DNA of 64,000 nt from Cyanidioschyzon merolae (lineage: Eukaryota): NCBI GenBank assembly GCA_000091205.1, contig AP006500.2; one strand, given 5' to 3'. A program made the translations under genes and the position numbers. This document shows, in pieces, positions 870 to 62,040 of the stretch. The notes under the pieces are model-generated. The model was given only the letters and a program-made list of their open reading frames with translations. It was not told the origin of the DNA and searched no databases. The first letter of the stretch is position 1, and each line of letters opens with the position of its first letter.

Positions 870-3800
870 CCTACCCACCGACATGCAGACGCCTTGCAGT
901 CTTTTTGGACCGGCCATCTACTACTTGTTTCAGCTTCTTTCTGTAGAATGCAACCTTGAGAGTTTGTCCTATAAAGTTGGCTCTCGTGAGCTCTGCGCGT
1001 CTCTTCCCGGGCACTGCACATCTCCTGATATTGATAGCAGTGTTAAAGTGTCGGTTCCCGAACTCTAAGCGTTTGCTCCCGTTGGTTGCACTCGCTAGTG
1101 CGAGGAACCCGCGAAATTTCGCCCTCGTTTTCATTCCTGCCCCGTCAGCGTTGCGTACTTTTTTATATACTTAGGGCTCCTCTGGCACGTTTCCATCTCG
1201 AATCTCTGAAGTATACATCCCAGTTCATAGTGTGTATAGGACATTCGGATCTCATCTGCAGGTATCTCAGCGAAACGCCTTGCGCACTCCTTGTACGTTC
1301 TTGTCTTTGGAGCTGGCATAGTCCCTTTTTGGGTCTTCCAGTGCCCTGCTCCGTACGCTACTGCTAGCCTCTGATTTCCATCCTCCTTCGGGTCACTCAA
1401 CTGATTGAAAAAATTTGCGAACGCCCGCTGCCTCCCACAGTACAAATTCATACGCAAACGAGCCCACCGGGGCTTGGTATACCCCCTCCACAGCCCATCC
1501 CAATGGGCAACACGTACTTCCATGAATTTCCGAAAAGCTTCAAAATCCGCTCCTCGGCTAGGAACCTGGCTGATCGCTTCCAGGTGCTCTTTCACTCCTG
1601 CATTCTATGTCTCAATTTTCTTCCGTGCATTCATCGTTCCCGATTCTCGGTAATATCTCGCTCTTGAGTGCTTTAAAAGACTCATGTCTTTCTGACGTAA
1701 GTTGCCGCCAGTACCATTTTCTACGCGCTTGGGGTACTGCGGTGGTTTCGATATTCCTGTTCCCAGGTTCCGCGCTGACGACAAAGTACTCGTCCTGCGC
1801 ATTCTGCGTCGCAGAACCCGCCTCCTTCTCATCTTCATGCTTCGCCGCGTCAACGACAAAGTCGTTATCCTGCACCTTCTGTGTCGCAGGATCCGCCTCC
1901 TTCTCATCTTTATGCATCGCCGCGCCAACGATAAAGCCGTTATCCTGCACCTCCTGCGTCGGAGGATCCGCCTCCTTCTTTTCTTCATGCTTCGCCGCTC
2001 CAACCATAAAGTCGTTATCCTGCACTTTCTATGTCGGAGGATCCGCCTCCTTCTCATCTTCATGCTTCACCGAGTCAACGACATGGTCGTTATCCTGCAC
2101 CTCCTGCGTCGCAGAATCCGCCTCCTTCTCACCTTCATGCTTCGTCAAGGGCGCAGCCGAGGGCGGAACTGGACGATCCTTCTTCAGCCGCCGATAGTGT
2201 ACACACATGGCTACTCCATCGGTTTCGGTCATCCCAGTGAATAATTTTTGTTTGCTCACCCTCAGACGTTTGAAATCGAAGATATTCTTCCAGTACGTCT
2301 CCCGGTTTTCACCGCAGAACTCCTCCCCGTTAACATTGAACTCCGGACAGATCTCCTTCATGATGCCGTACAGGACTCTGGAGTTGGTAGCAACAAAGTG
2401 CGACTTGTTGTTCCATATCGTGACGAAAATGAAGCGCTTCCCCAGAAGCGCAGCCGCCCGTTTCCACGACTCTGCAGTTTTTCCTCACTCAGCTTCATCT
2501 CCGCCTTGCGTTCGAGCTCTCGGTCCGGAAACACAAAATATCGCAGTACGAGGCGATAGGATCGTTCCTTATCTTTTTTCAACTCTGATGTCTTTTCTGC
2601 TGGATTCACCAGGCCCAGTGCCGCACGATGCTCTTGTATAGCCCCACGAATTACAGAAGCTTCATTCATGCTCTCGTTTGACGACTTCTTATCGACGAAT
2701 TCGACCTCGTCTTCATGCCTGCGATCGTTCGTGATGCCGTTGATAGTCGCCCATACTCCTTTGCGAGAGATGCGCGGCTAGAATGCAAACACGGCGCGTA
2801 TCGCGAAACGTTCGAGGTTCATAGGCAAATGGTTCTTCAGGCTTGTGAGGTACTTCATTGCCCCGTATGTGTACATACCACAGTCGCCTCAGTACCGAGT
2901 ACCGTTCAACCGGAATTCCGCGTTATTTCCGTGGAGGCATGCACTCCCTCATTCTTCGTCGACGCTTCCCCTGTGCCAAGCATCAGGTGACGAATAAAGT
3001 CTCATCGAAAATTTCTTCCGGAACCTCGACAGTTTCGATGCCCGTCACGTTGTCGTACATGTCCTTCACAAAAAGCATCAGTCCTGACGTCGCCTTCATA
3101 ATACTCATAGGCTACGTCGCGACACGTTCTCTGATGACTTGTTGCATTTGTTGCTCGTACGAATCCTTGATATGATTCACAAGACAGGGTTTCACCACCA
3201 TCTCGTTGTAGAGTTGTCTTTCGTGCAGCTTCTGACGCTACGCCTTCCCCTTTCACTTCTTCGTCTTGTCCTCTTCCCCTTTTACTCGGCACTGTTCTCC
3301 ATTTTTCAGGGAGCCAGCGATGCGGAACCTCCAGGATCCTCGACTTGCTATTCCACAACCTTCCTTGATTTTTTCTGAAAAAGAACACACTTTGAACGCT
3401 TCTGCTGTAAACCGCGGAAAAACACATGAATACAGTAATCCCAGAATGGAACACAACCGAATTTAAAGAATACACTTTGCGATGACTTTAATTGAAATAC
3501 GACTTTACATTAGAGCAACACTTCAACAAATCGTCAGATAGTGTTTCTCCTCAACGGCAACATGCGCGCCATACCTGATGCCTACCAGATGTGGAGATGC
3601 GCGTATCGAGCGCACTATAAAGAACAATGAACAGAATCGATCCACTAACTAGCACCGATAGAACGAGTTCTTTCCCTCTCTACGATAACCGTTAAAAGAG
3701 GGAAAATGTTTCCATGTGATCGAAGGTTTACCTTCTGGGGACAAGGTCCCGCGAACCGCACGAGTCTGCCAGACCCGTGCTTGATACTCTCCCCTGAGGC

Positions 3801-4180
3801 AGGTGGTGTAGCGAGACCCCAACAACTCGACCGCAACGTAGTTTACTCCGGGACTAGGGGCGGGTAGCCTGCCTCTGGACGTCGCCGTACTCGCCGGATA
3901 ATCCTAGTATATCGCTTCGCGCTGCCGCAGGCAGTGGCTCAGGCTGCGCAGCTTCCAGAATTCCAGAATGATCATAAATCCCGGCCCCGTGTCACTTGAA
4001 GCATTCCTCGAGCGGACGCCTGCATTGGTATGACAAACCCGTTCTGCATCCTTACTGTATCCGGTTCAGGTGCTATTGCAGGTGCAGTGAGGCAGGCACT
4101 CGGCACACGATAGAACGTACGAAACGACAAGCATATCAGAGAAGAAGTGTACGTAATGGAACTTGGACTTAAAGTGCATC
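870..4180 (-). mobile_element. Dispersed repeat family, copy 1. The conserved blocks are interrupted by an extra segment of about 1.1 kb that includes a 75-bp coding tandem repeat. On the minus strand it carries K/E-rich ORF fragments in several frames, consistent with decay, frameshifts or introns.
   Basis: ORF peptides at 871-1134(-), 2029-2669(-), 3002-3475(-) and 3645-3836(-) are homologous to peptides at 57419-57760(-), 57764-58177(-), 58450-58791(-) and 59250-59462(-). Nucleotide identity is about 75-80% across blocks in the same order and orientation. Confidence 0.6.
1775..2160. repeat. 75-bp tandem repeat of about 5 units. It is in frame on the minus strand and encodes 25-aa repeats of the form KHEDEKEADPATQEVQDNDFVVDAA.
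   Basis: gtcgttatcctgcac recurs at 1861, about 1937, 2011 and 2087. Minus-strand ORFs 1612-2025 and 2029-2361 show the 25-aa periodicity, continuous with the conserved repeat-family ORF. Confidence 0.8.
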
Positions 4181-7100
4181 ATAATGGACATTTTTTCAAT
4201 TGCGAATACCCGTCCATCCCGCAATCTGGCATCTGTGGTCCATAGAAATATTTTGTCATAGAAAAGCAAAGATTGCGCGCATTGCGTCTACCTTTCATTT
4301 GCGCATTCAGTGCTTTGTCAATGCAGTCGACCTGTAGCCTAGCGGTTACAGTACCGGTGGGGCTAGCGGTTAGATTCTTCAACTGACGCCTAAAGCGACT
4401 GCCCTGCACCAACCTCATGGAACCTCTATAGGACGTACGGTTTTCTGAAGCGGTAACGAGAACCTCCAAACCTGGGGTCTGGCTTACTATCTTTGGCGCA
4501 CTTCGCAGTTCTAGAAGAGTGACCCGTCGAGGCCGAGTCTGCAGCGCCGCAGCCACCGGTGTTACTGTCGTTCACGTCGTCGCTGCTAGATATTCTGATT
4601 TAGCGCAAAGTTGAGACGGACTCGAGCTTCAGCTGCAGAGCTGCCTGGACGGATATGCAGTGCGTGTGATTGTACCACCACGAAGAGATCGCTTTGCGCG
4701 GGGACGTCAAAACCGCTCAAGCGGACTTGCCGAAGAGGTTTATGATGCCGGAGAGCGCAACGCTGCGGCGCGTAGCTTGCACGCGGTGCCTCTCCCCGCG
4801 TTGCTTGCTCCTATGCAGCCTCACGTTACTCTTCTTCCTGCTTCGTCGAATGACTGTTGATATACATATACTGAAAGAGCTCGATGGCCAGCATCGTGCG
4901 CTTTCAAACCGCTGCTTGAAACCTCTGATACACTTTCCGGAACTGCATGCTCTGTTCCAACTTTCCTATGGTATCGCGAGCATCGTCAAGCGTCTCGCGA
5001 TTCTCGGAAGAGAATGCATTCGCCCCGCAGAGATCAGCGATGGATCCTGCAAACCAGGCAACGGGCAAGCATTCGAACCAGAGCAGGGTCTTCAGCGCGT
5101 CTGCACGAAGCTCTTGCCGCTTATTCCGACCTGGAGGCAGGCGATTGTGAATGAATGGACGAGCGCGACAACGACGACCTACGGCACGCCATCGCGTCTA
5201 TACGAGCGGGGACAGCCTGCCTCTGAAGCAGGCCTGGAGCTCCGCCTCGTCGATCACTGCCATGCGACCCTGGACCTGGGTCCAGTCGCCCTGGACAGAC
5301 GTACCCGAGTACTGGCTCGCTCTGTTGGGAAGAGGACTGCCCCAGAAACGGCGCCTCTTCTGCAGTTCTCGCGTGCTGTATTTGGTCTCTCATGTTGTGA
5401 CGATCTGATGCGCTCCAATGAGAGCACACACCGGCTGGCGACGCTCGTTCGAGACCGGATTCCAGATGCGGCTGTCGTGTGCTGCATTGCAAGCTCCGAA
5501 AAGTGAGCATCGATCACGGTGCTGGTCTCGAGATCTTCGCTCCTTGGCTGCTCGACAGCGACGCCACAGAGGCCGTAACGTTGACTCTAGGTTCGGCGGG
5601 ATGCCCGCCAAACGAGGGCGAGCAGTCACGACATCTTTGGCAGCACCGCCGATGCCGCCCAAGCAGTGACCTTCGTTAACGTTCTAGGACAGCCTCCGTG
5701 TGCTGGAAAACAAGACTTTTTTCGCAATCGGTTGCGGCGACGCGCTGGCGCTAAAGCATACAAACGGAGTTTCTATCCGCATGCGACCACGTGGACGGAC
5801 ACATAAACCACGGCCTTGGCGTCGCGTCGCGATAAGCGCCGAGCTACTCGAAAACTGAGTTGCAGCGCTGGCTTCCATGCCATGCATTGCAAGCCAATTA
5901 GAACTGCCTGTGTTGTTGGAAAAACGTTGTCGGTGCGGTTACGTTCCAGAAAGCCAATGCGGGTAAAGCATGATAGAGAAACCTCCATGACGGACAGGGC
6001 TGAGGTAGTTCTCAGAAAAGCGGCAACGCGACGCGTTGACCAGTACTCAAGATTTTCGCATTATCCAGAGTTGACGCTCTCGAAGGTCCAGAAAGTTAGA
6101 ACGACACAGACGGCACAAAATCTGATGCATAGAAATGCAAGTTCGGGGCCAAACCTGCAACCCATTCGTGCAAGCATGTACGCAAGCGTGAACTTTGCCA
6201 GATACTGTTCTGAAGCGCACCCCTGAATCACCATACATGGCTGTCGTCAGGTACCGAAACGAGACTGTCTTTGCGGATCACGTGTATGCATCCAGGGCAG
6301 ACGTCGGCCCTCATGTTCGCGGATTCACGAAACGCAGACGAGCAGCATTCGCCCCGTTCGGTGGTATCAAGCAGCGGGGCTGCTCGTGATTGGCTCCTCG
6401 AGCGCTGTCCTCAAGGGCGCTTAAAGAACGGTCGTTCCAGGTGGCTTTTTTTTCCGGAAAACCCCTCCGAATGATGCCTATAGTACAGCGCCCGTATCCA
6501 GTCTGGATGCTAACGATTCATCCATCCCCATCAGATTGCAAGCATATCGTTCATAAGGATTCCAGGGTTTCCACGCAGCAGCTCATGAGTCGATATGCTG
6601 ATCCATGATTACCGAAGCCTCTTCGACACCATCACCTCCACGCTCGCATCAGACAGACAGGTAAACAGGCAAACAGGCAAACACCCCGCGGAGATGCTTC
6701 AATCGTCGCTAAAATGCTCTGCCTGCACACCAAAGCCGGCCAGCAGCCAGTCCATGCAACGTACACGGAGCCGTCCGCCCGAGAGGGCGCCCACAAGCTG
6801 CTCTCAAAGCGCGGGCAGCGGAGAAGGCGGCATCCGACGCCCCGGTGAGTGGCCGCAGAAACAGCACATCCAACGGGCGGCCACAAAACCGGACACACTA
6901 CCCGGAACGCGAAACCTCGCCGCGCTGCTCAGCTCAACGCGTGGTCGAAATGAACGAGAACTGCACGGGTGTGAGTCCGATACCAGGAACCTAGGTAGGA
7001 CGATCTCCAGTTGCTCAGTCTCTGAACAGGAAACCCAGCATCTTCCACCCATCTGCGACCGCCTGGCGCTTCAGCGCCACCAGCGATCAATGCCGAGGTG

Positions 7101-7199
7101 CCGCCCTGCAGCCGGGCAATCCAGACCAGGAAAGCGACAGCATTCCTCCATCCGAATACGTCTGCTAAAACGCATCGATGCTCAGCCCACACCAAAGGT

Positions 7200-7811
7200 A
7201 CCGAGCGCAATGCCATGCTCGCTGCGTCCCGCATCTCGAACAAGGTGCATTCAAGGACGCCTCAGCGCCGCCACGAACTGAGCACATCCGAGTCGTACTT
7301 GCCTCTTCTCGAACAAGGTGCTCTCAAGGACGCCTCAGCGCCGCCACGAACTGAGCACATCCGAGTCGTACTTGCCTCTTCTCGAACAAGGTGCTTTCAA
7401 GGACGCCTCAGCGCCGCCACGAACTGAGCACATCCGAGTCGTACTTGCCTCTTCTCCAACAAGGTGCTTTCAAGGACGCCTCAGCACCGCCACGAACTGA
7501 GCACATCCGAGTCGTACTTGCCTCTTCTCCAACAAGGTGCTTTCAAGGACGCCTCAGCACCGCCACGAACTGAGCACATCCGAGTCGTACTTGCCTCTTC
7601 TCGAACAAGGTGCATTCAAGGACGCCTCAGCACCGCCACGAACTGAGCACATCCGAGTCATACTTGCCTCTTCTCGAACAAGGTGCATTCAAGGACGCCT
7701 CAGCGCCGCCACGAACTGAGCACATCCGAGTCGTACTTGCCTCTTCTCGAACAAGGTGCATTCAAGGACGCCTCAGCGCCGCCACGAACTGAGCACATCC
7801 GAGTCGTACTT
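7200..7811. repeat. 73-bp minisatellite of about 8 units. It abuts and overlaps the 3' end of the J-domain gene.
   Basis: The ORF track shows 60-aa ORFs starting every 73 bp (7318, 7391, 7464, 7537, 7610, 7683). The last truncated unit encodes the C-terminal KYDSDVLSSWRR and stop of the minus-strand J-domain ORF. Confidence 0.9.
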
Positions 7812-8942
7812 CCGCCGCGACTCTGGATTGCTCAGGACTTGGTAAGCCTCGACAACTTTTTGAAACGCCGAATGCCGCTCCTCCGCCGTCAGTGGCCGCT
7901 TCCTATCCGCGTCCGCCGAACCCTGGACAGCCTCACGGAGCGTACTGTGCTGCGAGTCGGGGTGCAGCGCTTTGGCTCGTTCCAGGTAGGCTTTGCGAAT
8001 TTCGCTGCTAGTTGCGCTCGGCGAGACACCGAGTGTTGCATAGTGCGTGCCAGGTGCTGCGCGAGGTGGCGTCTCCGGCTGCTCCTCTCTCGAAAAGGCT
8101 TCGGACTGGACTCCTCCGCGGAAACGCCGCTCCCACTCGAGGTATCGGCGAAAGAGCTCGCGCCGAGCCCGTTCTTCTGCGGCCATGAACGCTTCTCGGC
8201 GACGCGCTTCCTTCTCCGCCCAGTTGTGTTGGGCTGCCCGTTGCAGACGTTCGAGAATCTCGCGCTCCAAACGCTCCCGTGAGTAACGCTGATAGTTTCC
8301 CCAACCTCGATGGATTTCTTTGCCAACCGCGAAGCGAGAGTATCGAAAGCCAACGACACCAGCTGCATACGCTCCGAAAATGAGGAAAGCACCCACCGCC
8401 AGTGCCGAAGACGGTTTGGAGACCTTCTCAGACGACACAGCCGAACTATTTTCACCGGACTGCAGCAGCGTTCCATCGCGTCTTGGTCCTGAAGCTGACG
8501 CGGCTTCCGAGACGTGTCCCAAGTCCGCCTGCGGAGGCCGTGTTGATCCAGACGCTGGCCCGCTGACCGGACGCGCCCCGGCACTGGCTTCCTTCGTGGC
8601 CATTCTGTACCAAGGGTCGGAGGAGGCACCCAGGATTTGTATACGGAGCTGGTGTACGCATGTCCAGCGGACTCTGACCGTCCTCGAAGCGCGTTCGACT
8701 GCAGCAGAGCGCGCTCTGTCCCCAACTGGGTTCCTCCGAGGCTGGCGCCAAGCTCCGGCTGGCGAGCTGGCTGGCTGGGCAACACGCGCCACGACACCAG
8801 TCGCAACCGCTGCGCTGCAACAGCGCTCTGCTGAGCGCTGGTGGAGTCTTGGACGTTCATGCGAGACGAGCGTGTCTTTTTCTGGACCGCAAAGGTTCTC
8901 CCTCAGGTCGAAAGGAGTCAAAAAATACCCTTGATCACGCAT
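7773..8942 (-). CDS. J-domain (DnaJ-like) protein with a predicted transmembrane segment. The J domain is at the C-terminus. The true start is probably an internal Met.
   Basis: C-terminal HYATLGVSPSATSSEIRKAYLERAKALHPD ... FQKVVEAYQVLSNPESRRKYD carries the J-domain signature (HPD motif). A hydrophobic segment ALAVGAFLIFGAYAAGVVGF lies upstream. Confidence 0.6.
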   Translation of the reverse strand: MRDQGYFLTPFDLRENLCGPEKDTLVSHERPRLHQRSAERCCSAAVATGVVARVAQPASSPAGAWRQPRRNPVGDRARSAAVERASRTVRVRWTCVHQLRIQILGASSDPWYRMATKEASAGARPVSGPASGSTRPPQADLGHVSEAASASGPRRDGTLLQSGENSSAVSSEKVSKPSSALAVGAFLIFGAYAAGVVGFRYSRFAVGKEIHRGWGNYQRYSRERLEREILERLQRAAQHNWAEKEARRREAFMAAEERARRELFRRYLEWERRFRGGVQSEAFSREEQPETPPRAAPGTHYATLGVSPSATSSEIRKAYLERAKALHPDSQHSTLREAVQGSADADRKRPLTAEERHSAFQKVVEAYQVLSNPESRRKYDSDVLSSWRR

Positions 8943-11983: not shown

Positions 11984-12413
11984 TCGGGACGAACCTTGGT
12001 CTCACCTTTAGTAGAAGCTGCCCCCGGTGCTACAGAGTCTGCGGCTTTGGCAAGTCGTGTCGTCGTCGCGCTGCAGCCGGCGGCTGCAGCATTGATCGCA
12101 CACTTGGCGTTTAGGGGGGAGCCAACGCTCCTGCGGTCGTGTACTACCCGCCGAGGTTGACAAGGAACAGGCGTCCCTGGATCGAAGCTTAGTTCCGCGG
12201 GAGGCTCGTGACACAGGGAACAATAGCTTTCGCAGTTGCGGGGAGGTGGATGCTCTGGTAGGGCCCGCTGCACCCTCCGGAACACGATGCGAGCCTCTTG
12301 AGCAGTCCGACTCGGGTATAGCCGGTGAGGGATCCATGGAGCGGACTCGTTTATCCCCTGGCTATGCTTGCCTCGGAGCATGCAGACAGGTTTTCAGAAT
12401 CTTCGAACCTGCA

Positions 12414-12936
12414 TACTACACGATTCAATTCATTGCATTTAGGACTTGTATAATTACTGATGAGAATCAGGATTTCTCAAACCTATACCCTACACGATTT
12501 CACTGATTGCATTTAATACTTGTGTAATCACTGATGAGAATCAGGATTTCTCAAACCTATACCCTACACGATTTCACTGATTGCATTTAATACTTGTGTA
12601 ATCACTGATGAGAATCAGGATTTCTCAAACCTATACCCTACACGATTTCACTGATTGCATTTAATACTTGTGTAATCACTGATGAGAATCAGGATTTCTC
12701 AAACCTATACCCTACACGATTCCATTCACTGCTTTTAATACTTGTGTAATCACTGATGAGAATCAGGATTTCTCAAACCTATACCCTACACGATTCCATT
12801 CACTGCTTTTAATACTTGTGTAATCACTGATGAGAATCAGGATTTCTCAAACCTATACCCTACACGATTCCATTCACTGCTTTTAATACTTGTGTAATCA
12901 CTGATGAGAATCAGGATTTCTCAAACCTATACCCTC
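12414..12936. repeat. 74-bp minisatellite of about 7 units, intergenic and upstream of the Tim9-like gene.
   Basis: The unit gatttcactgattgcatttaatacttgtgtaatcactgatgagaatcaggatttctcaaacctataccctacac recurs at 12496, 12570, 12644 and onward, with variants. Confidence 0.9.
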
Positions 12937-13518
12937 AGAAAAATGATCCAACATTCGCTGCGTTGTCGCAAGTCCAAACGGCAGCGGCGAGTCCCGAAAT
13001 GCTGAACACGTGAAAGCGCTGCGAGAGCGGCAGGGCATTGCAAGCATTGCAGGACTAGTTCATGAATCAAGCCTCTTTTCCTACGTAAATCAATCGACGG
13101 TGATGCCTATCACCTCGACATTTCCGCAAAATAACCGAGTGAGTTCAACCCGTTGTTCGCCAGTTGCGTACCCACAGTCACGGAACGCAAGTGTGAAGCA
13201 TCGGCCCGAAACTGTTTGCACGCCAGCGCGCATGCAGTGCTGCCCTGCTGTACAGCAGTAAGAGGCATCAGTTGGGTACTGTTTGATGGATTGGTGGATC
13301 AATCTTTGGCACAGCGCTACCCTGGGTCAGCGATAGCATTGCTGCGCGCCCTACAACGTGTTTGCGAATGGCAAGAATGCCCAGTGCCAGCGCGTTGTTC
13401 ACTGCAGCGCAATCACGCTCCGATTTGGCAGTTGATTGCGTTCTGTTGCGATGCGTTCATGCTCAGGGTGAAGTAAAGCAAAGTCTGTATGTATCTGTTG
13501 ATCTGAGGTCTGCTAGAG

Positions 13519-15150: not shown

Positions 15151-16452
15151 TCAATGATGGCGTGTTGACGTCGATGCTGTCGGCGTTTGCAGGCGAGTTG
15201 CGCCTACCATCTGCATGAGGACGGTCTTGGCACGCCCGTACAACTCGCGCAGTGTCGGAGGCAACCAGGTCGACCACATGTCTAACTGCATTTCGATGTG
15301 TTGCCACACCAGCCGCGTGAAAGGACAGCTTAAATAGCGCAACTGTAAATAGCGATAGAGCACCAAAACCGCCAGGAAGCTTCTTTGCGGTGTGAATATC
15401 GAAGCCAGCAAAAAGATGAACAGGGCTGCTTCGGCGTAGGCAGCCAGTAGGCGAGCCCTACTTTCATGCTGGCGCAAGTATGCGGCCAGATGTCGTTGCT
15501 TTGTCGGTGCCAAAAACCAGCGTAGCACCTGTGCAGAGGCAGTAGCGCTTTCGAAAAGTGGCAACAGACGATCGTAAACGAACGTGGTGATGAGCGACGC
15601 CATTGCGAGCCTTAACGCAACCGGGTGATGCAGCTGCACACCAACGGATACGAAGAAAAGCCGCGGAATGAGATCAGCAGAAGCGAGCGCCCGCTCTAGA
15701 CGCACCCGACCAGGCCACTCGCGAGGTAGCCGTTGCCAGCTCTGGTAGCAAGTCCAAGCCAGGGAAAGGAAAACACCGACCCAGGTCCAGCCGACAAGAG
15801 GCCCCGTTCCCATCCAAAACGTGCCAGTAGCAGCAACTAGGATGCACAGGTCCAACACGGGGCCCAAGTCGCTTGCCCCGCTGCGCTGAAAGCCAGCCCA
15901 GGCCGCTTGTCGGCATGCCTGCACACATTTCCAGGTGCGCTGTCGCCAGTCGTTGCTGTAGGTCCGCGCAAACTGGGTACGCTCACCTGCTGCTGCGTCT
16001 GCTGGAACCGCTCTAGAGCTCTGCGGCTTCAACGGCAACGAAGGATCGATGTACCTGCGAAAGAAAGCCCGACGGAGACGCTCCTCGACTTCCGCTGACG
16101 GTGCGGTGACCTCAGCGGCACGCCGAAAGCGCTGCCAAGCCTCGTCCGTGTCGAAAGGGTAGCGTTTGAAAGCCTCCTCTGCTGCCTCTGCTGCATCTTC
16201 AACCAGTGGCATGGTCCTCTCTTCTGCGGGCGGTGAACGACCTCGGCAACTGCCACACCCCGGAGTCCGGTGTGAGGAACCCCATTCATGTCCGCAATGT
16301 TCCAGTTCATCGAGCGCGCCCGCAGAGCGATCACCGATGCATCGAGTGCAGTGAGAGCGCACCAGGGAGGATACCCTCAGCAAGTTGCGCTGCCATGCGT
16401 GCAAACTGCTGGGAACGGGACACCAGGCAAGGTACTCTGGATCGGTACCCAC
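15151..16452 (-). CDS. Hypothetical multi-pass membrane protein
   Basis: 433-aa ORF with 3-4 strongly hydrophobic helices in the C-terminal half. No motif confidently recognised. Confidence 0.35.
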   Translation of the reverse strand: MGTDPEYLAWCPVPSSLHAWQRNLLRVSSLVRSHCTRCIGDRSAGALDELEHCGHEWGSSHRTPGCGSCRGRSPPAEERTMPLVEDAAEAAEEAFKRYPFDTDEAWQRFRRAAEVTAPSAEVEERLRRAFFRRYIDPSLPLKPQSSRAVPADAAAGERTQFARTYSNDWRQRTWKCVQACRQAAWAGFQRSGASDLGPVLDLCILVAATGTFWMGTGPLVGWTWVGVFLSLAWTCYQSWQRLPREWPGRVRLERALASADLIPRLFFVSVGVQLHHPVALRLAMASLITTFVYDRLLPLFESATASAQVLRWFLAPTKQRHLAAYLRQHESRARLLAAYAEAALFIFLLASIFTPQRSFLAVLVLYRYLQLRYLSCPFTRLVWQHIEMQLDMWSTWLPPTLRELYGRAKTVLMQMVGATRLQTPTASTSTRHH

Positions 16453-16700
16453 TGTACTGGATATACGGATAATGGTCTTGTTCAGCGGGACTCTGGGAGA
16501 TGTACTCTGGATTGGAACGCACTGTACCGGATATACGGATGCTCCTCGTGGTCAGCGGGACTCTAGGGAACGTACCTTGGATGGGTTCGCACTACACTGG
16601 ACGTAAGGATACTGAATTTGGCCAAGATAGGCAATAGGCAACGTGCTCTGGATCGGTACGCACTGTACTGGATGTACAGATAGTGAACAAGATCAACATT
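16433..16700. repeat. 70-bp tandem repeat of about 4 units at the 5' end of and upstream of the 15151-16452(-) ORF.
   Basis: tactctggatcggtac...cagcgggactct recurs at 16433, 16503, 16573 and 16644. Confidence 0.8.
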
Positions 16701-30215: not shown

Positions 30216-30270
<55 letters not shown>

Positions 30271-35051: not shown

Positions 35052-35052
<1 letters not shown>

Positions 35053-39070: not shown

Positions 39071-40475
39071 GCGATCCCCTGCTTGGCCTTACGATGGTTG
39101 GTCGAAAGCACACGCGAGCGCTCTGCGTTGCACGTCGGCTCTCGACTCGCACCTGATATCGATACGGCGTACTTGCTCATTGCGGAACTGCGTCTGTAGA
39201 GCCGAGGTACGGACAGTGTCTCTTGTTCAGTGATGTATGATATGTACTATATGGTTTGATTCTGTACAATTAGATTATATATTGAGACAGCACCTGTGTC
39301 GGCGGCGCAGTATGTCCAAGAAGCTCAATGTTTCTTCGATCCACCTGGCACCAGTGCATGTTCTGATGCGGGCAGCTAGTCGGGGGCGGCAAATTATCAC
39401 GAGCGTTTGCCTCCAGATAGAGGCCAGCTCGCCTTCGAATCCGCTTTGGTGCAAACAACTAATTCGGGATATGGTGAAAGCGTAACCATCTGGAATATAC
39501 AAGTACTTGAATGGCAACGCTTGGATCTTGCACCTCCTGTGTAATTCCTGGAACGAAGCGAACGCACTATAGCTCTTGCGACTGGAATGAAGACGGCGTT
39601 TGCTTTTCCGCAAGCAGCATATTGGAAACGGAAACACTCCCGATTCCAAGTTTCCCTCAATGGCAAGAGATATGTTCACTATCTCTCCTCGGGAGCTGTA
39701 GGCACGCATGAATGAACCGAGCGCACTGTTGGAATGCGACAAGCGGGAACGGCACATGTTTTTTGTAAATTCCAAAACAGATCTTATCTCACGAGGACGA
39801 ATTTCAGGAAATATCCTCATACATCTGAATTTGTGCACGCAACCTGACGCGGATATACTGTTTGCGCACATAGATACCCTCCTTGTCTGGATCAATGCCG
39901 GCATACTTGAACGAAAGTACTGCGTGCACGCAAGGACATTCTCCGTGCCACATACGGTCAGTGACACAAAAACTGTCCGACGACCATGAAGAGTAAATAT
40001 GTCGACTTACGCACAGACGCCTCCCAGCCTTGTCTGGCCGGCCCCTGGCATCGGTTTCAGTTCCTCTCTGCACACTTCGAGCCCGAGGGCATGCTGTACA
40101 AAGTTTGCATCGCTCAGCCTTTAGAGTGCCCTTTGCAGCACAGCACATTTCCTGATACGGGTACCGGCGTTGAAGTCTCTGTTCAGACACCCCTTGCGTT
40201 TGTTACCACTCGTCAGAATCCCCAATGCAGGGATTCCTCGAACTTGTGCCCGCAGTTCCATGACAGCATCGTGGTCGTCTCATCGGACAAGCACGCTTTC
40301 TTCTTCCTTTTCGTCACTTGCGCTTCTTCACTCGATAGTCTGCGAGCAGCGTATTTGTCTCGTTTCTGCCCAACAAGGCAATGAGTGCCAGCCAGAATCC
40401 CCGACTCGCCTGTCCATACCTTTCCCTTAGATATTTTACTCCTTCCAACGAACGTACTTTGCGCATATATGGTAT

Positions 40476-41327
40476 CCAACGCGAAAGAAGCATAGGATAA
40501 CACATATCCATAGCCGGTACACAATTGAAGTGATATGCTGGAAAACGCGAAAAAGCATAGGATAACACATATCCATAGCCGGTACACAATTGAAGTGATA
40601 TGCTGGAAAACGCGAAAAAGCATAGGATAATACATATCCATAGCCGGAACACAATTGAAGTGATACACTGGAAAACGCGAAAAAGCATAGGATAACACAG
40701 ACTCGTAGCCGGAACACAATTGAAGTGATACACTGGAAAACGCGAAAAAGCATAGGATAACGCATATCCATAGCCGGAACACAATTGAAGTGATATGCTG
40801 GAAAACGCGAAAAAGCAGATGATAACACACACTCATAGCCGGTACACAATTGAAGTGATATGCTGGAAAACGCGAAAAGCATAGGATAACACACACTCAT
40901 AGCCGGTACACAATTGAAGTGATATGCTGGAAAACGCGAAAAAGCATAGGATAACACACACTCATAGCCGGTACACAATTGAAGTGATATGCTGGAAAAC
41001 GCGAAAAAGCAGATGATAACACACACTCATAGCCGGTACACAATTGAAGTGATATGCTGGAAAACGCGAAAAAGCATAGGATAACACACACTCATAGCCG
41101 GTACACAATTGAAGTGATATGCTGGAAAACGCGAAAAAGCATAGGATAATACATATCCATAGCCGGAACACAATTGAAGTGATACACTGGAAAACGCGAA
41201 AAAGCATAGGATAACACACACTCATAGCCGGTACACAATTGAAGTGATACACTGGAAAACGCGAAAAAGCATAGGATAATACATATCCATAGCCGGAACA
41301 CAATTGAAGTGATACACTGGAAAACGC
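40476..41327. repeat. 65-bp minisatellite of about 13 units, ending about 190 bp upstream of the RPB1 start codon.
   Basis: The unit ggaaaacgcgaaaaagcataggataacacatatccatagccggtacacaattgaagtgatatgct repeats. Minus-strand ORFs start every 65 or 130 bp (41026, 41091, 41221). Confidence 0.9.
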
Positions 41328-41519
41328 GCGCCACCGCCGTCGACGCCGGCGCGCTTCCGCTGGAGCACTGCGCGTCCGCCGGCTCCTGCACCCGGTGCCG
41401 TGCCCGGGTGTGGACTTGTCGTTTGGGGAGTTGTTGCACGGCGGGTGGGTCGCCACTCCAGCTACGGTTGCGTTTGAACTGTGCTACTTTCTATCTTCAG
41501 ACTGGGCACGTTCATCGCG

Positions 41520-44500: not shown

Positions 44501-46979
44501 CTTGCATCCCCGGCAAATCATTCAAGGCGTGCGCGTACTGCTCCAGCGCTGCGTCGTTGTTCCTGGCGACGATGAGCTCTCCCGCGAGGCCCAGCGGAAC
44601 GCAGTACTGCTCTTTGCGGCCCACGTGCGGGCAGAGCTCGCCACGAAGCGTGTCCTGCAGATTCACCGGCTGAACAGCAAAGCTTTTGCCTGGCTTCTCG
44701 GCGAGATTGAGACGCGCTTTGTGCGAGCACGAGCAACACCTGGTGAAATGGTTGGCGCGGTTGCTGCCCAGTCGCTGGGTGAGCCTGCCACCCAGATGAC
44801 CCTGAACACATTTCATTTTGCGGGTGTGTCGGCAAAGAACGTCACCCTGGGAGTCCCGCGTCTCAAAGAGCTGATCAACGTAGCTCGTCAAGCGAAAACT
44901 CCATCTGTTACGGTGTATCTGAAGAGCGGCAAAGATAAGGAGCTGGCGAATATTGTGCAGAGTGAGCTAGAGCAGTGCCGACTCCGCGACGTGGTCGAAA
45001 GCAGCGCCATCTACTTTGATCCGGATCCCGCGAACACCGTTGTGGAAGCGGATCGGGAATGGGTCCGCGACTACTTCGACTTGCCCGATGAGATGGACCG
45101 GCCCGAGCGCTTATCGCCTTGGCTTTTGCGCATCGTCCTGAGCACCGAGATGATGATTGACAAACGCCTGCGATTGAGCGATGTTGCTCGTCGTCTGCGG
45201 GCGGAGTTTGGTGGCGACCTCTCCGTTGTCTATTCGGATGACAATGCCGAGCAACTGGTGATGCACATTCGCATGGCCGGAGACGAGTACGAGAAAGGCG
45301 CGCTGGGCGTTCCGATTCTCGGCGAGTCGGAGCGCCTTGACGATACACTGAACCTACTGGGGCCTGGCGACATGACCGCGGGCGGGAACCAGTCGCTAGA
45401 GGCACTGGACTCGGGCACCGTTGAGGAGCAAGATGATGTTTTTCTGAAGCGTATTGAACTAGCGCTCCTAGAGGATATGCAGCTGAAAGGGATTCCAGGT
45501 ATTCGAAAGGTGTTCCTGCGTCAGACGCAACGTGTTCTCTTTGATCCCGAGGCAGGATCTTTTCGCAGTGCGCCTGAGTGGGTGCTAGATACCGAAGGGA
45601 CGGCGCTATTGGCGGTGCTTTCCCATCCGGATGTGGATGCGAGGCGCACGATTTCCAACGAGATTACCGAAGTGCTACAAGTGCTCGGGATTGAGGCTGC
45701 TCGGCAAGCGCTTTACAATGAGATGTACGCGGTGCTGAGTTTTGATGGATCCAGTGTTGGATACCGGCACTTGGCGTTGCTGGTCGAGGTGATGACCTGT
45801 CGCGGAATGCTCATACCTGTATCTCGATTCGGAATTAATCGACTCGAGACGGGACCATTGATGCGCTGCACTTTTGAAGAGACCGTCGAGATTCTCGCAA
45901 CCGCGGCGACCTTTGGCGTTCGTGATGCTTGTGAGGGTGTCTCGCAAGCGGTGATTCTGGGGCAACGAGCAAAAGTAGGCACCGGGGCCTTTTCACTAAC
46001 GCTCGACGAGTCTGTACTGAATCAGGCAGAAACGGAAACGAGCGTTGCTGCAGTGCGGGACGCCCACGTCGGCGGTGTCTTTGCGAAAGCCTATGCTGCA
46101 GCCGACGTGGATGCAGATCACTGGACACCAGCGTACACGCCAGGAGCAACGCCTGGGATGGCCAGCGACGGCTTCGCAGCGCCCTGGACTCCGAGTTTGA
46201 ACCTCGCGAGTCCGTACGGTTCATTTTCCCCAGCCGTTGGCTTTAGCCCAGCAACGAGCACATATGTCGGTGGTGATGCGATGAAGGATGCCGGTCGGTA
46301 TGGGCTCGGTGGAACCTCACCCTTTGCGAGCTTCTCCGCTAGTGCGACGACTCCGAATTGGGCTCCGAGTCCCGCGGGGGGCGGGACCGGTACGTTGGGC
46401 GCATTTTCGCCATCGAGTCCCGCCTATTCGCCAACGAGTCCTCGTTTGGTGTCGCCGACGAGCCCTGCATACTCACCAACAAGTCCTGCGTATTCGCCGA
46501 CGAGCCCTGCATACTCACCAACAAGTCCTGCGTATTCGCCGACGAGCCCTGCATACTCACCAACAAGTCCTGCGTATTCGCCGACGAGCCCTGCGTATTC
46601 GCCTTCATCACCGAATGTTGCATATTCGCCTTCATCACCGAATGTTGCCTATTCACCTTCTTCACCGAATGTTGCCTATTCACCTTCTTCACCGAATGTT
46701 GCATATTCACCTTCTTCACCGAATGTTGCATATTCGCCCTCATCACCGAATGTTGCATATTCGCCCTCATCACCGAACGTTGCGTACTCGCCTTCTTCAC
46801 CGAATGTTGCATACTCGCCCTCATCACCGAATGTAGCGTATTCACCTTCTTCACCGGTTGCATATTCACCCTCTTCACCGAACGTTGCCTACTCACCCTC
46901 ATCACCGAATGTGGCATACTCGCCTTCGTCACCGGCGTTTTCACCATCGTCACCTGTATATTCTCCAAAAAACAAATAG
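41520..46979 (+). CDS. RPB1: DNA-directed RNA polymerase II largest subunit RPB1, with a C-terminal heptad/nonamer repeat domain. The start is taken at the Met of [10 protein letters not shown]. The track ORF opens 13 codons upstream.
   Basis: Zinc-binding [27 protein letters not shown]. The catalytic [14 protein letters not shown]. The bridge helix, trigger loop and C-terminal YSPTSPA repeats. It is a single 1.8k-aa ORF. Confidence 0.95.
   Translation: [1819 protein letters not shown]
46440..46930 (+). repeat. Coding tandem repeats of the RPB1 CTD. A 42-bp unit, equal to two heptads with alternating codon usage, occurs about 4 times. A 27-bp unit encoding YSPSSPNVA occurs about 11 times.
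   Basis: tactcaccaacaagtcctgcgtattcgccgacgagccctgca repeats. tattcgccttcatcaccgaatgttgca repeats. Confidence 0.9.
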
Positions 46980-50151: not shown

Positions 50152-53088
50152 CGAAATGGCTGACTCCCGACCTGAAATGGAGGATACACCAATGACCCGG
50201 GATTGATGGAGCACACTCGACGATGCCGCTTACCTGCGCCTAGATTTGAACACTTGTGCAGCCATCGACTGTGTCACTTGACTTCAGCAAGGTGATTCGG
50301 GATCAAATTCCAGTGATTCGGATTCATTGTTGCCACTTATCTGCGTCCCGCGTTCCGTACTCCTGCGGATACGGACAGCGTTCCGTACTCCTGCGGATAC
50401 GGACAGCGTTCCTCGGCGCTCCTCCAAAGTATACGTGGAGAATCGAGCTGCCAGCGATCCAGCTGCCTTACAACCAGCACCGTCCAGAGAGACACGAGGA
50501 CTGCAAGATGCCTTGGTGCGGTGCGTCATCGACTTGGCCGATGGAGACGTTTGCCGTGCCGCTTGTCTCGTAACGAGTATTATCGGATAATGGATCATCA
50601 TTGCCGTCTACCAACTGTGCTGCAAAATCATTTTATCCGCCTATCCGCGGCACGTCAGCCTCTCCGTATTGCTGAACCGCACCATAGCTGTGGCCTGCTC
50701 CGGGCGAGAATCCAGTTGCCTCTCTCGTAGACACTGATTTTTTCATTGAAAGTATTCAGCGTTACAGCACAGTGCCCAGACTGAGTAGTGCATAATAGCT
50801 TCAAAAAAGCGCATGACACAAAGCCGCTGGACACACTCTCGGAGCACGTGATGACCTATACGGATGCTCATCGAGGCGTTCAATACTCGGTGCAGAGGGT
50901 GCTTGCATGCATTTTTGCCGGCGGCGTTACACCATCGCAAGCCTCTCACGTTCGACTGCTGCGCCAGTTGACGTTGAGTTCGCATAACGTACTCCATCTG
51001 GTACATATGTCTGTGTCCAATGCTCTTCTTTTCATCCTGTTTGAGCGTGCAACCGCGCTTGTGATGCGTTTACGTCGTCGTGAAGGCATCCACGAGAATC
51101 ACGCTGAATCGAATCCTCCGCACGTTCAACGCCCACGTCGACGGAGCGTGCGTGCAACTTTTACGTGTTACAGCGTATCCAACTCCATCGGCTACCGCCA
51201 CTAAACGACACGAGTTGTCTGTTACTTAGTTTTCCAACTCATTGAACAAATTGTCAAATGCAAGCTTTTTGTGCGCGTTAGACCGGAACAGCTGGTGATC
51301 CTGGCACGGTCTCATGCACTCCTGCCAAGATCGCTGACTTGAGCCACATTGATGCCCGCGTACCGTCTGAATGAGGCGTGCGGAGCTTTCTGCTCCGCTC
51401 GATGCAGAACTCAGAGCGTCGAGACGGATCCCCGTGATGTTCGTCCACTTGTTGGCATGCCTTCTGGCGTCCATGATGCCGCGTACTCAACCATTCGGAG
51501 CCCTGGGAAAATTGAGCGGTTTGATGGGCTTTCCGTTCAGGCCTTTAACGCGGTGCTTTTGATTGGTAGAGGTACGGCGACGGCCTTGACGGGTTTCAAC
51601 CCCGGATCCAGGCCCGTGATGACGGCTTCTACTTCGTCTGGATTGAACGTTTCAATACGGGCGTCGCTGCTCGACACACCTTTCGGTATCATCATGTGCA
51701 TGCTGCGTGAGATTCCGTTGGTCTGCATTGTCCCTGCAAAATGCTTTCAATGTCCACTTTATATATGAGAGATCTTGAATGAGATGCCCCAACGCTCTCT
51801 GCGAAGCTCATCGCGTCATGCAAAGCTCCTCGCAGAGACCAGCCGTTGCTTATTGCATAGCGAATATTCCACAAAGGTGTCTACAGTTATATCACGGGTC
51901 ATGTGCTGAAATACTGGAACCACATCTTATTGGATATTGAGGATGCTAGGGCGCTCGGCTTCGACGTGCGCGTCTGCTTTGTTCTGAGCCGGCAGGCTCT
52001 GTTCTGAAAAACGTGTCGCAAATTGCGAACAAGTCAGCGATCACATTCCAGGCGTTTTTGCTAGACGAGCTTCACTGGCCGCAGACCGAAACCGCGGCTA
52101 TAAGCTTGGACGTTCCGGGGTGACACTCGTTCTCGTTGCGACTTCGCTTCGGAAGTCGCAGTCAACTCGAGCGCTTTGATCACCACGAGCTCGTCCCTGG
52201 CCTCCTTCGACACTGCGAAAGATCCAATTCACCAGTCGCAGCTTTTATTTGGTCTTGTGAGGTTATAACGGCCACAAATTGCGCGATGTGCGCCCCATGA
52301 AGCGCTCGACATTGACTCGCATCTGATTTCTGAGGTTCCTTTGATACGTTTTTGACAATCGTACAGCACAGCAGAGCTTTTCCGATCGCCGATATCGTGT
52401 GGCGCCCCCGGAAAGCATCCTGGGAATCGTGTATAGGAATTTGTGATGCAATGCTCAGAACTTGTTGCATCATGTCTCCGGAGCATCAGTTTTGTTGTTG
52501 CACGAATGTTGGATCACAATATTCTTGAGCAACTTGGACATCTGGTGGCCCTGCTCTCGGAACGCCAAAGAATAGCAGCATGACGATTGCGTCAAGCCGA
52601 GTGATGCTGGGCGAGAGACAATCGCGTAGGAGGCTTCGCGACACCACATGCCGTCCTGCATCTCACATTTCGGAAGATGCTCCCTACTGATATCTATTCG
52701 TTGAGAAGCAGTGATTATGGTTTCAGAATGATGTATCCTGGATGACACATTTCCATTCCAGACCCGTCTCATTCTCCTTTTGAGAGAATCTTTCTTCTTT
52801 TTGTCAAGTTTTATTTTCTCCGTCTTCACTTTCACCTTACCATGGTGTTCTGGTATGAAAGTAGTCACTATACTTTATATCCGTCTTGTGTCCTCGGGAC
52901 TCAGACGTACTGGGCGGACGTTGACACCGAAGCCTACCTTTTCTGTCCGTGTATAGATCTACTTTTGCTCAGGAAGTTTTACGTCACCTTTTGCGTCGCG
53001 AGCATGCCCAAAAACCGATGCACGGCTTGCCGGTCCGTCCTCCGTGCGACCAGAGGAGCTACACATCATTCCAGGGCTGATGAAGGTA

Positions 53089-57419: not shown

Positions 57420-59780
57420 CAGGGACGGTGGAACACGAATACATACTCGGACGAGATGAGGTCTGCACTGAGGTGTGTGGTGGCGTCTGTGTACCCGGGA
57501 GCATCTGTTACAATCCATGAATCCGCATCGTGCGCAAAGCATGCAGGCGCACCGCAGCCCGCGCTTGACGCGAGATCATCGACGCGATTGAGCGCATTAC
57601 GACGATAGCGTGGATGTCTATCCATCGACGTGCTGATGGCTCCCAGTCTTTTTCGAGCGGCCGCTGGTATCGGTTTCAGCTTCTTCTTGTACACTTTGTT
57701 CCCTAGAGGCTGCTCTACAAAGTTCATTCTCGTCAGCTCCGGGCGCCTCCGCTCCCGCACCGCCTATCTCCTGGTACTTATGGGAGCGTTAAAGTCCCGG
57801 TTCGCAAACTCTATCGCCTTTGATCGTACCCGTAAATAGCTGTTCTTGCTCGTTTTGCGACGTTCGATATCGAAGGTATGCTTCCAGTGACTGTCCTGGT
57901 TTTCGCTGGTGAACTCTATCTTCCTTACATCGAACTCCGTATGGATCTCCCTGATCATCCCGTACAGGGCCCTGGAGTTGATAGCCACAAAGTGCGACTT
58001 GTGGTTGCATATCGTAACGAAATTCAAGCGCATCCCCAGATGCGCAGCCGCCCGTTTGTACGACCCTGCATGCTTCCGCACACCCAGCTCCATCTCCGCC
58101 TTGCGTTCGAGTTCTCGGTTCAGGAGTACGAAATACCGCAGGATGGGGGAATAACATCTTTTCACATCTTTTTTCATCTCTGGTATCTTTTCTGATGGAT
58201 TCGCCAGCGCCAGAACCGCACGGTGCTCTTGAATAGCCGTACGGATTATAGAGGCTTCATTCGCGCTCCTGGGTGACGTCTTCTTGTCGACGAATTCGAC
58301 GTCATCTTTATGCTGGTGAATGTTGGTGATTCCATTGGTAACCGCTCATATTTCCTTGCGAGAGAAGCCCGGGTAGAATGCAAAGATAGAGCGTATCATG
58401 GAACGTTCAAGGTTCATGGTAATCTAGTTCTTCAGATTCGCGAGGTACTTCATTGCCCCGTATTCGGAAATACCCCAGTCACTTCTGTACCGAGTACCCT
58501 TGTACCGGAATTCCGCGTTATTTTCTTGGAGGGTATGCACTCGCTCATTTTCGTCGACGTTTCCCCTGTGTCAAGCACCAGGTGCGGAATGAAGGTCATG
58601 TTGAAAAATTCTTCCGGAACCTCGACAGTTTTGATGTCCGCCACGTTGTCATAGGTGTCCTTCACAAAATGCATCAGTCCTGACGACGCCTTTATAATAC
58701 TCATGGACTGTGTCTCGACACAATTTCCGAAGTACTCTCGCAACTTTTGCTCGTACGGATCCTTGAAATATCCAAGAACAGAGGCTTTCACGACAATCTC
58801 GTCGTACTGTCGTCTTTCTTGCAGGCATTGACGTCGGCCTCCTGCCTCGGCTTCTTCGTCTTTTCCTGTTCGTCTTTGCTCGGGACTGCTTTTCGTTTCT
58901 TTCCGTCAGCCGGCGACACTGCGCCTCGGGGACCTTCCACTTCCTTGTCCATAGATTTCCTTTTCTTACTTTGGTTTGAAAATGAACCGGCTTTGTACGC
59001 TTCTGCTATAAAACAATTAAAAATCATTTGAATAGACTCACTTGAGGGTTGAAACACGATTCAGCTGAAAGACTATAACTTGCAACGACTTTAACGCAAA
59101 TACAACTTGTAATTCAGGTGAACAAGTTAACGAATTGTCAGGATCGTGTTTCCCTTCAACGTCGACGTGCGTGTCATCTCTGATGCCTGCCAGATATGGA
59201 GATATGCGTATCGAGCGCATGATCTAGAACAAAGAACAGATACTGACCACTAACTAGCAACGATATAACGATTTCTCTCCCCGTCTACGATAAACGTTAG
59301 AAGAGGGAAAAGCTTTCCGCATTGCCGGAAGTTTATCTCCTGGGCGGAAGGTCCTGCGAGCCGGACGAGTCTGCCGGGCTTGCGCTCCGTGCGCCTCTGC
59401 AGCGACCGATGCTGTAGTGGGATCTGAGCAGATGGTTGGCAACGCAATTTAATCTGGGACAAGGAGCAGGCATGCTACGTCTGGGCGTCGCCCATATTGC
59501 AGTTGTCTCCTAACATATCGGTTCGCGCTGCCGCACACAGTTGGTCTGTCTGCGCAGCTTGCAGGCTCCCCGAGTGTTTATATTCTGCGACTCCGTGTCA
59601 GATGAATGACTCCTCGATCCGACGCCTTTAGTGGTATGACAAAGCTGTTCTGTCTCCGTCATGCATTTGCCCGAGCGGTATGTGCGCTACGGCGGCTGCA
59701 GGAAACCAGACGCTCCGCGCACGATAGAACGCACAAAATGACCATTACATTCGAGAACAGGTGATGAAACTCGGGAGTAT
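57420..59780 (-). mobile_element. Dispersed repeat family, copy 2. It is the more intact and compact copy and has the same orientation as copy 1.
   Basis: See copy 1. Minus-strand ORFs 57419-57760, 57764-58177, 58450-58791 and 59250-59462 parallel the copy-1 fragments. A hairpin-like motif and the cgatagaacg motif are conserved near the right end. Confidence 0.6.
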
Positions 59781-59815
59781 GACGCAGCATGATGGACGCT
59801 TTCCCGAAAGCCAGT

Positions 59816-59878
59816 ATCCATCCATCCATCCATCCATCCATCCATCCATCCATCCATCCATCCATCCATCCATCCATC
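59816..59878. repeat. (ATCC)n, equivalently (CATC)n, tetranucleotide microsatellite of about 15 units
   Basis: read directly. Confidence 0.95.
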
Positions 59879-59936
59879 GACAAAGTAAACGTTCTGCCAT
59901 CGGAAAAAATCCTCGCCGCAGCCGTCGGCGAGGCAG

Positions 59937-61604: not shown

Positions 61605-61799
61605 AACCAAACGCCAAATAAACACTGTGTTCTGATTCACAACGACAAATGGACGACAAGAACCGCCTCAGCGAAATCCACGCAACCGAGTCAGCATTCA
61701 CGGCACGCTAGAAAAAGTTCGTATCCCGACCTGCATCCCTTGGGTCTGAACGACAACCAATAAAACACGCCATGTATCGCAAGCATGAAACTAGAGCAA

Positions 61800-62040
61800 T
61801 GCTCCAGCGGGCGCTGCGTATCGCCGCGCACAACGCCTGCGCGTATCCTCGAGCCGACGCACTTTGTGTGGTACGGCAACGCCGTTCTGTCTCCGTGCAG
61901 CGACCTCAGCGGCGCTATAGGCGCTATTGCTGTCGCTTTCGGCAGGCAGTAGGCACACACGATAGGACGTACGAAACCACCAGAATATCCGAGATGAAGT
62001 ATAGGTAATGTAACATGGAGGTAGGTGTAGATCGTTGGAT
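61800..62040. mobile_element. Terminal fragment (about 240 bp) of the same dispersed repeat family, corresponding to the right end of copies 1 and 2.
   Basis: ggcaggcagtaggcacacacgataggacgtacgaaacc...gaagtataggtaatgtaacatgga matches 4085-4170 and 59690-59770. Upstream, gttctgtctccgt and ctcgagccgacgcactttgtgtggtacggcaa match 59580-59650. Confidence 0.6.

Follow-up and report, generated by a model that had tools for sequence, protein, structure and literature searches.

Two long repeats in a 64,000-nucleotide stretch of the Cyanidioschyzon merolae genome (contig AP006500.2 of assembly GCA_000091205.1; hereafter the window) are almost certainly decayed insertions of CMe-1A, a known non-autonomous C. 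merolae DNA element of unclassified superfamily, whose sole gene is Fanzor1. The repeats match the published consensus of this element, the host is C. merolae, the encoded protein is homologous to Fanzor1 both by sequence profile and by fold, and both copies in the window have been inactivated. The element family was already known, its consensus and protein having been published in 2013. As the rediscovery of that transposon family through two inert copies, the finding itself matters little; its value lies in correct annotation, since stretches of 2-3.5 kb and three further relics are Fanzor1 pseudogenes and not host genes, a subtelomeric family or a new class of element.

The window is about 55% GC and rich in minisatellites. 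A repeat search within it recovered six collinear blocks of 78-300 nt, 71-78% identical and at a constant offset of 55,594-55,614 bp. Sensitive blastn aligned copy 1 with copy 2 over 2,039 columns at 73% identity (2213-4226 against 57808-59834, E=0), and a second block at 71% (864-1078 against 57611-57825). The direct repeat pair is real and lies far beyond chance. The original prediction, made from the letters alone, had described two direct, collinear copies about 55 kb apart and about 75-80% identical, with homologous peptide pairs. The copies are there, at a spacing of about 55.6 kb and an identity of 71-78%, and the peptide pairs were found again on the minus strand.

Bao and Jurka (2013, Mob DNA 4:12; PMC3627910) described CMe-1A as a family of some 150 copies that each share about 80% identity with its consensus, which is roughly 3 kb long (3,169 bp) and contains a single-exon open reading frame (ORF) of 734 amino acids. 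The element has no terminal inverted repeats (TIRs), its target-site duplications (TSDs) were not determinable, and some copies still encode an intact Fanzor1. Its 5' 635 bp are 95% identical to a separate element, TE-N2_CMe, which is present in about 70 copies. In the paper, which also introduced Helitron2, the authors assigned CMe-1A to no superfamily and gave only this one Fanzor1 family for the C. merolae genome in 2013 (PMC3627910). Among the matches listed in a full-text literature search for Fanzor together with Cyanidioschyzon, only this paper and an unrelated Auxenochlorella preprint appeared.

The published consensus (Additional file 2 of PMC3627910) was aligned to the window. Copy 1, on the minus strand at 794-4259, covers consensus positions 3-3168 of 3169 (window 4259-794) at 81-84% identity (81-83% by blastn, a local alignment extending the 3' end to consensus 3168 at position 794). 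It is a full-length, dead CMe-1A, about 80 bp longer at each end than the limits of 870-4180 first proposed. Copy 2, also on the minus strand, aligns with consensus 26-2053 (59837-57808, 81%) and 2901-about 3097 (57814-57621, 70%), so that its limits move from 57420-59780 to about 57600/57621-59837. Its smaller size has two causes: an internal segment (consensus about 2054-2900) is missing from it, and copy 1 is lengthened by four additional 75-bp units. Divergence of the window copies from the consensus is about 16-20%.

Copy 1 shows no inverted repeat between its two ends. TSDs were likewise absent at nine full-length metagenomic copies of related elements, which have T-rich flanks on both sides. 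Beyond the consensus alignment, the window copies fit the published description of CMe-1A in size, divergence (about 80% identity), absence of TIRs and TSDs and the shared 5' 635 bp. With the CMe-1A of Bao and Jurka they have in common the host genome, the single-exon Fanzor1 ORF of 734 residues, the 5' module shared with TE-N2_CMe and the absence of TIRs and recognisable TSDs. Essential differences from the consensus are lacking: the copies are decayed members, altered by the extra 75-bp units in copy 1 and, in copy 2, by the loss of about 850 bp from the interior and by a microsatellite that occupies the 5' end. The host is equally clear, as eight of ten window ORFs exactly match annotated proteins of C. 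merolae 10D (BAM82447-BAM82460, from a record of 1,253,087 bp). The host genes in the window include RPB1, a Vps41-like gene, pyruvate dehydrogenase kinase, a mannosyltransferase, CMR216C, CMR218C and CMR227C.

As the element reads along the minus strand, both motifs recorded in the original prediction sit in its 5' module, which in copy 1 corresponds to consensus 1-635 and occupies 3627-4259. The first of these, the 23-mer gcacacgatagaacgtacgaaac, is exact at 4103-4125 and recurs at 59717-59739 with 5 mismatches and at 61955-61977 with 2. It is thus present in both copies, as proposed, and also in a third fragment; the 'right-end' position once given to it is in fact a 5' position in the orientation of the element (consensus about 128-150). 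The second, a hairpin with arms tttccctct and agagggaaa (consensus about 553-600), was said to be conserved between the copies. Copy 1 has both arms (3671-3679 and 3697-3705); copy 2 keeps just one of them whole (59302-59310), its partner being degraded.

The third fragment is real and spans 61846-62030 on the minus strand (consensus 79-257, 79% by blastn), wholly inside the TE-N2_CMe-like module. Blastn also identified an inverted fragment of the 5' module on the plus strand at 62413-62752 (consensus 209-556, 68%) and a small C-terminal fragment on the minus strand at 40136-40261 (consensus 2832-2960, 73%; 40130-40255 by profile), which reads NRDFNAGTRIRKCAV. The 64 kb hold two CMe-1A copies and three fragments, which together with the abundance of related loci in metagenomes lends indirect support to the high genomic copy number published for the family. 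The short fragments near 62 kb are pieces of the 5' module, which also exists as the short element TE-N2_CMe. The inverted and C-terminal fragments had been missed earlier, as had two older relics at 25140-26204 (plus strand) and 50860-52466 (minus strand). Scans of the window with Rfam and for tRNAs gave no match.

The original prediction could not assign the K/E-rich protein of the repeats to a transposase, reverse transcriptase, integrase or helicase family. It is Fanzor1, a eukaryotic TnpB-like RuvC nuclease, as profile matches to the PDB, a fold match and identity to the consensus all indicate; since Fanzor1 belongs to none of the four families considered, the protein could not be placed among them. 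Motifs resembling those of TnpB/Fanzor RuvC domains could be recognised in the translated frames and gave a first lead, but simple searches were of little help. Pfam scans of the ORF fragments, a repaired 418-residue protein and close metagenomic homologues gave nothing significant, the faint match to Cas12f1-like TNB remaining sub-threshold among the relatives (best E=3.1e-5, 24.5 bits against a cut-off of 26.3). Comparisons of PDB sequences with the repaired protein (phmmer) and with a profile of close homologues, A1 (hmmsearch), were also negative.

The repaired 418-residue C-terminal part retrieved 167 metagenomic proteins of 50-65% identity, in which the motifs GADPGNTNI, VDEFRTSYTHH and NRDFNAAINI are restored; some of them carry the uninformative tag PF26935 (DUF8286). 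An exhaustive profile search extended the set to 1,372 cluster representatives (E<=1e-3), and full-length proteins of 600-700 residues are common among these. A profile built from 78 diverse full-length relatives (A3) was then run by hmmsearch against the PDB and on six-frame translations of the window. In the PDB it matched Parasitella PpFz1 (9cf0, 6.1e-21), Spizellomyces punctatus SpuFz1 (8gkh, 4.9e-13) and Guillardia GtFz1 (9cer, 1.8e-8), and no protein beyond these three Fanzor1 proteins significantly. The alignments span the motifs FTGTIeTDGV, DPGR/DPG, DEFRT(S) and RDxNAA. The link to Fanzor1 was seen only with this diverse full-length profile, not with single-sequence or close-homologue searches.

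Structural comparison, aimed at the Fanzor1 fold (WED, REC, RuvC and NUC), gave the same answer. An AlphaFold2 model of relative P0220 (pLDDT, the predicted local distance difference test, 93.1; predicted template modelling (TM) score 0.89) was searched against the PDB with Foldseek, and the top seven matches were SpuFz, PpFz and GtFz structures (E 2e-19 to 1.5e-15, query-normalised TM 0.59-0.72), with Cas12 next. This comparison was made on P0220, which is about 35% identical to CMe-1-like proteins, and not on CMe-1 itself; a model of the CMe-1-like protein P0001, for which the alignment was shallow, reached a pLDDT of only 53 and was set aside. For SpuFz1 alone (Saito et al. 2023, PMC10432273; PDB 8GKH), a homologue in which the catalytic D/E/D motifs align with those of the family, the Foldseek matches to P0220 have E values of about 2e-19 to 3e-18 and a TM of about 0.7.

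The catalytic triad is intact in the CMe-1A consensus and in some relatives. The RuvC-I Asp, invariant in A3 as D374, lies in GADPGNTN in the consensus and is aligned with the DPNKRD motif of SpuFz1. The RuvC-II motif, VDEFRTS, follows 174 residues after D431, within the Fanzor motif spacing of 125-275 residues, and its Glu is invariant in A3 (E541). The RuvC-III RD motif reads NRDFNAAINI and fits RDxNAAxNI. In the RuvC half of 52 non-redundant metagenomic copies, codon position 2 is conserved at 0.94 and position 3 at 0.82; from these alignments, past purifying selection on the protein is evident.

Both window copies, by contrast with the consensus, carry one long minus-strand frame broken by stops and frame changes in three-frame translation. 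The Fanzor1 pseudogene of copy 1 (858-3356; consensus ORF 906-3110, 734 residues) is 83.9% identical to the consensus ORF and has 10 frameshifting indels and 7 in-register stops. Its RuvC-I motif has changed from GADPG to GAEPG (D>E) and its RuvC-III motif from NRDFNAA to NRHFNTA (D>H; the stretch reads NRHFNTAINI), while in RuvC-II the Glu is kept (PADEIRMS) and TS has become MS. The family profile covers copy 1 in pieces over positions 4-601 (best piece E=1.5e-47). The 3' untranslated tail (794-857, consensus 3111-3168) is recognisable, with both its CCACTACTGTACAC motif and its terminal hairpin degraded. In copy 2 the deletion has removed RuvC-I and RuvC-II, RuvC-III is retained as NRDFNAPI, and the profile covers positions 8-319 and 568-608. 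Neither window copy is able to encode an active nuclease, and both are inert relics.

Tandem repeats have further altered the two copies. Just upstream of the RuvC-I strand, copy 1 contains an in-frame array at 1770-2144 on the minus strand with 5.0 units of 75 bp (Tandem Repeats Finder), against one unit in the consensus. The 25-residue, K/E/D-rich unit also varies in number across the family, with several units in metagenomic proteins P0002, P0003 and P0004. Its behaviour is that of a minisatellite that keeps the reading frame of the ORF in which it lies. The 5' end of copy 2 is obscured by a (TCCA)15 microsatellite at 59817-59876, which has grown out of a GGGATGGATATTGG stretch and is the source of spurious WMDGWMDG... 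ORFs. The insertions are old, and frameshifts, stops and catalytic substitutions came later, together with the tandem-repeat expansion in copy 1 and the internal deletion in copy 2.

Related elements are abundant in hot-spring metagenomes, where we confirmed 493 loci in differing contexts. Derivatives with internal deletions retain both termini, a pattern that fits a DNA element in need of both ends in cis and does not fit 5'-truncated retrocopies; a 5'-truncated retroelement was accordingly rejected. Where the TE-N2-like module is missing from a metagenomic copy, one of at least two different 5' modules takes its place; these measure 500-750 bp or more and meet the core near consensus position 650. 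Thus the CMe-1 core (consensus about 650-3169) occurs with at least three unrelated 5' modules (loci L004, L038 and L024; L006, L007, L031 and L042; and L003, L014 and L047). On two further contigs, L082 and L083 (JGI 3300005573 and 3300005861), the host proteins match those of C. merolae 10D perfectly; one of them is pyruvate dehydrogenase kinase, which lies beside RPB1 as it does in the window. Very close relatives of 10D are therefore present in these two metagenomes, from which most of the CMe-1-like loci also come.

The 3' end of the element is the more constant one. After the stop codon, a tail of 59 nt contains the near-invariant CCACTACTGTACAC motif and a terminal hairpin of 9-11 bp whose arms differ by subfamily in compensatory fashion (CGTTTTTC/GAAAGGCG, CGTTCGA/TCGAACG and CGTTCTA/TAGAACG); examples among metagenomic loci L002-L081 are L019:5270-5356, L041:4018-4104 and L011:3031-3117. 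The terminal segment folds with a mean minimum free energy z score of -1.9, and z lies below -1 in 73% of 37 copies. These are per-sequence values and, because the copies are related to each other, they are suggestive and not a formal statistic. A putative stem around or upstream of the CCACTACTGTACAC motif is unsupported (mean z about 0), and the 3' end of the ORF showed no third-codon-position constraint of the kind that an overlapping RNA would impose. The hairpin may belong to an omega-RNA scaffold, or it may serve at the DNA level as a signal to an HUH-type enzyme.

By analogy with Fanzor1 and TnpB, an intact CMe-1 copy would yield a protein with a basic N-terminus that is directed to the nucleus and binds a small omega-RNA whose template is the 3' end of the element. 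The resulting ribonucleoprotein would cut DNA matching a guide derived from the flank, and so would aid persistence or spread of the element. Movement itself would depend on another activity; the element encodes no transposase. Tentatively, and with the odds somewhat against it, the 3' tail of roughly 60-85 nt may be an omega-RNA scaffold (or a cis-acting end signal) that, given the interchangeable 5' modules, makes CMe-1 an element defined and mobilised from its 3' end, in a genome that also keeps relics of at least one much older Fanzor1 lineage. If this were so, an alga that is thermoacidophilic, nearly free of introns and open to genetic work would, with those hot-spring relatives that have a few intact copies, offer a natural system for the study of Fanzor and might supply RNA-guided nucleases that tolerate heat and acid. 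Modestly useful to the Fanzor/TnpB field in any case are the 3' hairpin and motif, the modular 5' ends, the deletion derivatives, the hundreds of metagenomic copies, a few with intact ORFs, and the older lineages.

Among known systems, bacterial TnpB (IS200/IS605, IS607; OMEGA) belongs to the same RuvC nuclease superfamily and follows the logic predicted here for CMe-1, a nuclease with an RNA derived from the 3' end. CMe-1, in turn, resides in a eukaryote, has an N-terminal half that is much larger and includes a basic tract resembling a nuclear localisation signal, and lacks an adjacent TnpA. The Spu-1 elements of SpuFz1 have 30-nt TIRs (PMC10432273), whereas CMe-1A has none. Short relatives without ORFs occur in both systems, as 'ghost' Spu-1 elements (PMC10432273) and as TE-N2_CMe, but TE-N2_CMe corresponds to the 5' end of CMe-1A and not to the omega-RNA end. 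For SpuFz1 the omega-RNA and cleavage have been demonstrated (PMC10432273), while CMe-1 is known here from its sequence. MCi-2 of Mucor circinelloides (PMC3627910) resembles CMe-1 as a Fanzor1 element of no assigned superfamily that lacks TIRs and joins a constant Fanzor-encoding 3' part to several alternative 5' regions. The copies of MCi-2 are young (99% identical) and have 11-12-bp TSDs (PMC3627910), whereas those of CMe-1A are old (about 80%) with no detectable TSD.

No observation contradicts the identification, although a few points stand on the other side of the balance. The canonical C4 zinc finger of the Fanzor motif is absent from the CMe-1 consensus, which has only two Cys and two His between TS and RD (...TSYTHHELGCTLQRVEMEKC...RGLLALVSTTSDG...NRD); more distant relatives have one further Cys (RGLLWCGST). 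From the residues present, an HHCC site may possibly take the place of C4 in CMe-1, which Bao and Jurka nonetheless filed under Fanzor1 (PMC3627910). All three catalytic motifs lie in one open stretch in just 7 of the 52 metagenomic copies, most of which are pseudogenes; such widespread decay fits an old family with few master copies. RNAalifold returned no consensus structure for the 3' tail (MAFFT alignment), a null result that we ascribe to the hairpins lying in different registers. Finally, the literature found by full-text search contains no demonstration of RNA-guided nuclease activity, an omega-RNA or a means of transposition for CMe-1.

For the mechanism of movement there is a competing explanation, which leaves the Fanzor1 cargo unchanged. 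CMe-1 may be Helitron-like or IS200/IS605-like, moved in trans as single-stranded DNA by an HUH enzyme (rolling-circle or peel-and-paste), with the 3' hairpin as a DNA signal. In its favour are the absence of TIRs and TSDs and a 3' end that stays fixed while at least three 5' modules alternate. A 3'-terminal hairpin kept by different sequences across subfamilies, with the folding scores given above, also agrees with it; the 5' module has a subterminal hairpin too, and capture of Fanzor1 by Helitrons is known in other species (Bao and Jurka, PMC3627910). However, the consensus begins 5' CGATGAC... and ends ...GAAAGGCG 3', where a Helitron would have 5'-TC and CTRR-3'. Neither the window nor the surroundings of the copies examined revealed a Rep/helicase or Y1 transposase, and the hairpin test is blind to whether the role is played by RNA or DNA. 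Membership of Helitron or Helitron2 is contradicted by the lack of the terminal signatures in the consensus and of RepHel in the window, although the 3' hairpin is present, and the definers of Helitron2 themselves did not place CMe-1A in it (PMC3627910). On this evidence we consider movement by an HUH enzyme improbable.

That a host gene was instead duplicated locally as a segment, or that the repeats belong to a host multigene family, for example a subtelomeric one, has almost nothing to recommend it beyond the fact that the window alone holds just two long copies in direct orientation. The similarity ends at the published termini of the element and the flanks are unrelated. The match to the consensus and the copy number, about 150 in the genome according to the literature (PMC3627910) and 493 loci with different neighbours in metagenomes, refute this reading. 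The suggestion of a subtelomere-like multicopy gene family in the original prediction likewise finds no support: the copies, both pseudogenes, lie among ordinary housekeeping genes (CMR216C-CMR227C) on a 1.25-Mb chromosome, with their place on it read from the locus tags, and their relatives occur in hundreds of unrelated metagenomic contexts. Its other suggestion, an unclassified mobile element, was apt: CMe-1A is a family of dispersed mobile elements that the literature has yet to place in a superfamily (PMC3627910).

Finally, the frame changes noted in the original prediction were described there as compatible with decay or introns, and are all that speaks for introns and for one or both copies being functional genes still; the splits are 1-2 nt indels and in-register stops relative to a single-exon consensus ORF, and so reflect decay, and with catalytic Asp residues substituted in copy 1 and the RuvC-I/II region deleted in copy 2 we regard functional, intron-containing genes as highly implausible.

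Beyond the CMe-1A copies, the family profile detected two old and divergent Fanzor1 relics. The first, at 25140-26204 on the plus strand (profile 277-598), reads IDEFRTARKHH...RGMLRC...DLNASIGIRK; the second lies at 50860-52466 on the minus strand (profile 109-583; E=3.6e-22 and 2.3e-15). Each is at most 40% identical in amino acids to CMe-1 or any retrieved relative, and the two are about 37% identical to each other. At the DNA level neither has similarity to CMe-1A or to the other. Their sequences suggest one or more older Fanzor1 lineages in C. merolae beyond the single family of 2013.

Minisatellites occur at 7083-7884, 12329-13009, 16416-16696, 40358-41436 and 46410-46966, several of them with units of 65-75 bp (73, 74, 70 and 65 bp). 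The 65-bp minisatellite adjoins the CMe-1 fragment at 40136-40261, just upstream of RPB1, and 21- and 27-bp repeats encode the C-terminal domain of RPB1, including an unusual 9-residue variant, YSPSSPNVA. The window also contains a 511-bp inverted repeat, 99% identical and unrelated to CMe-1A, with arms at 28786-29296 and 34280-34790 that lie 4,983 bp apart. Each arm is a few hundred bp upstream of the start of an inward-facing gene (the ORF at 29666-30916 on the plus strand and a mannosyltransferase-like gene at 32270-34015 on the minus strand), and a promoter or 5' region may recently have been duplicated here in inverted orientation.

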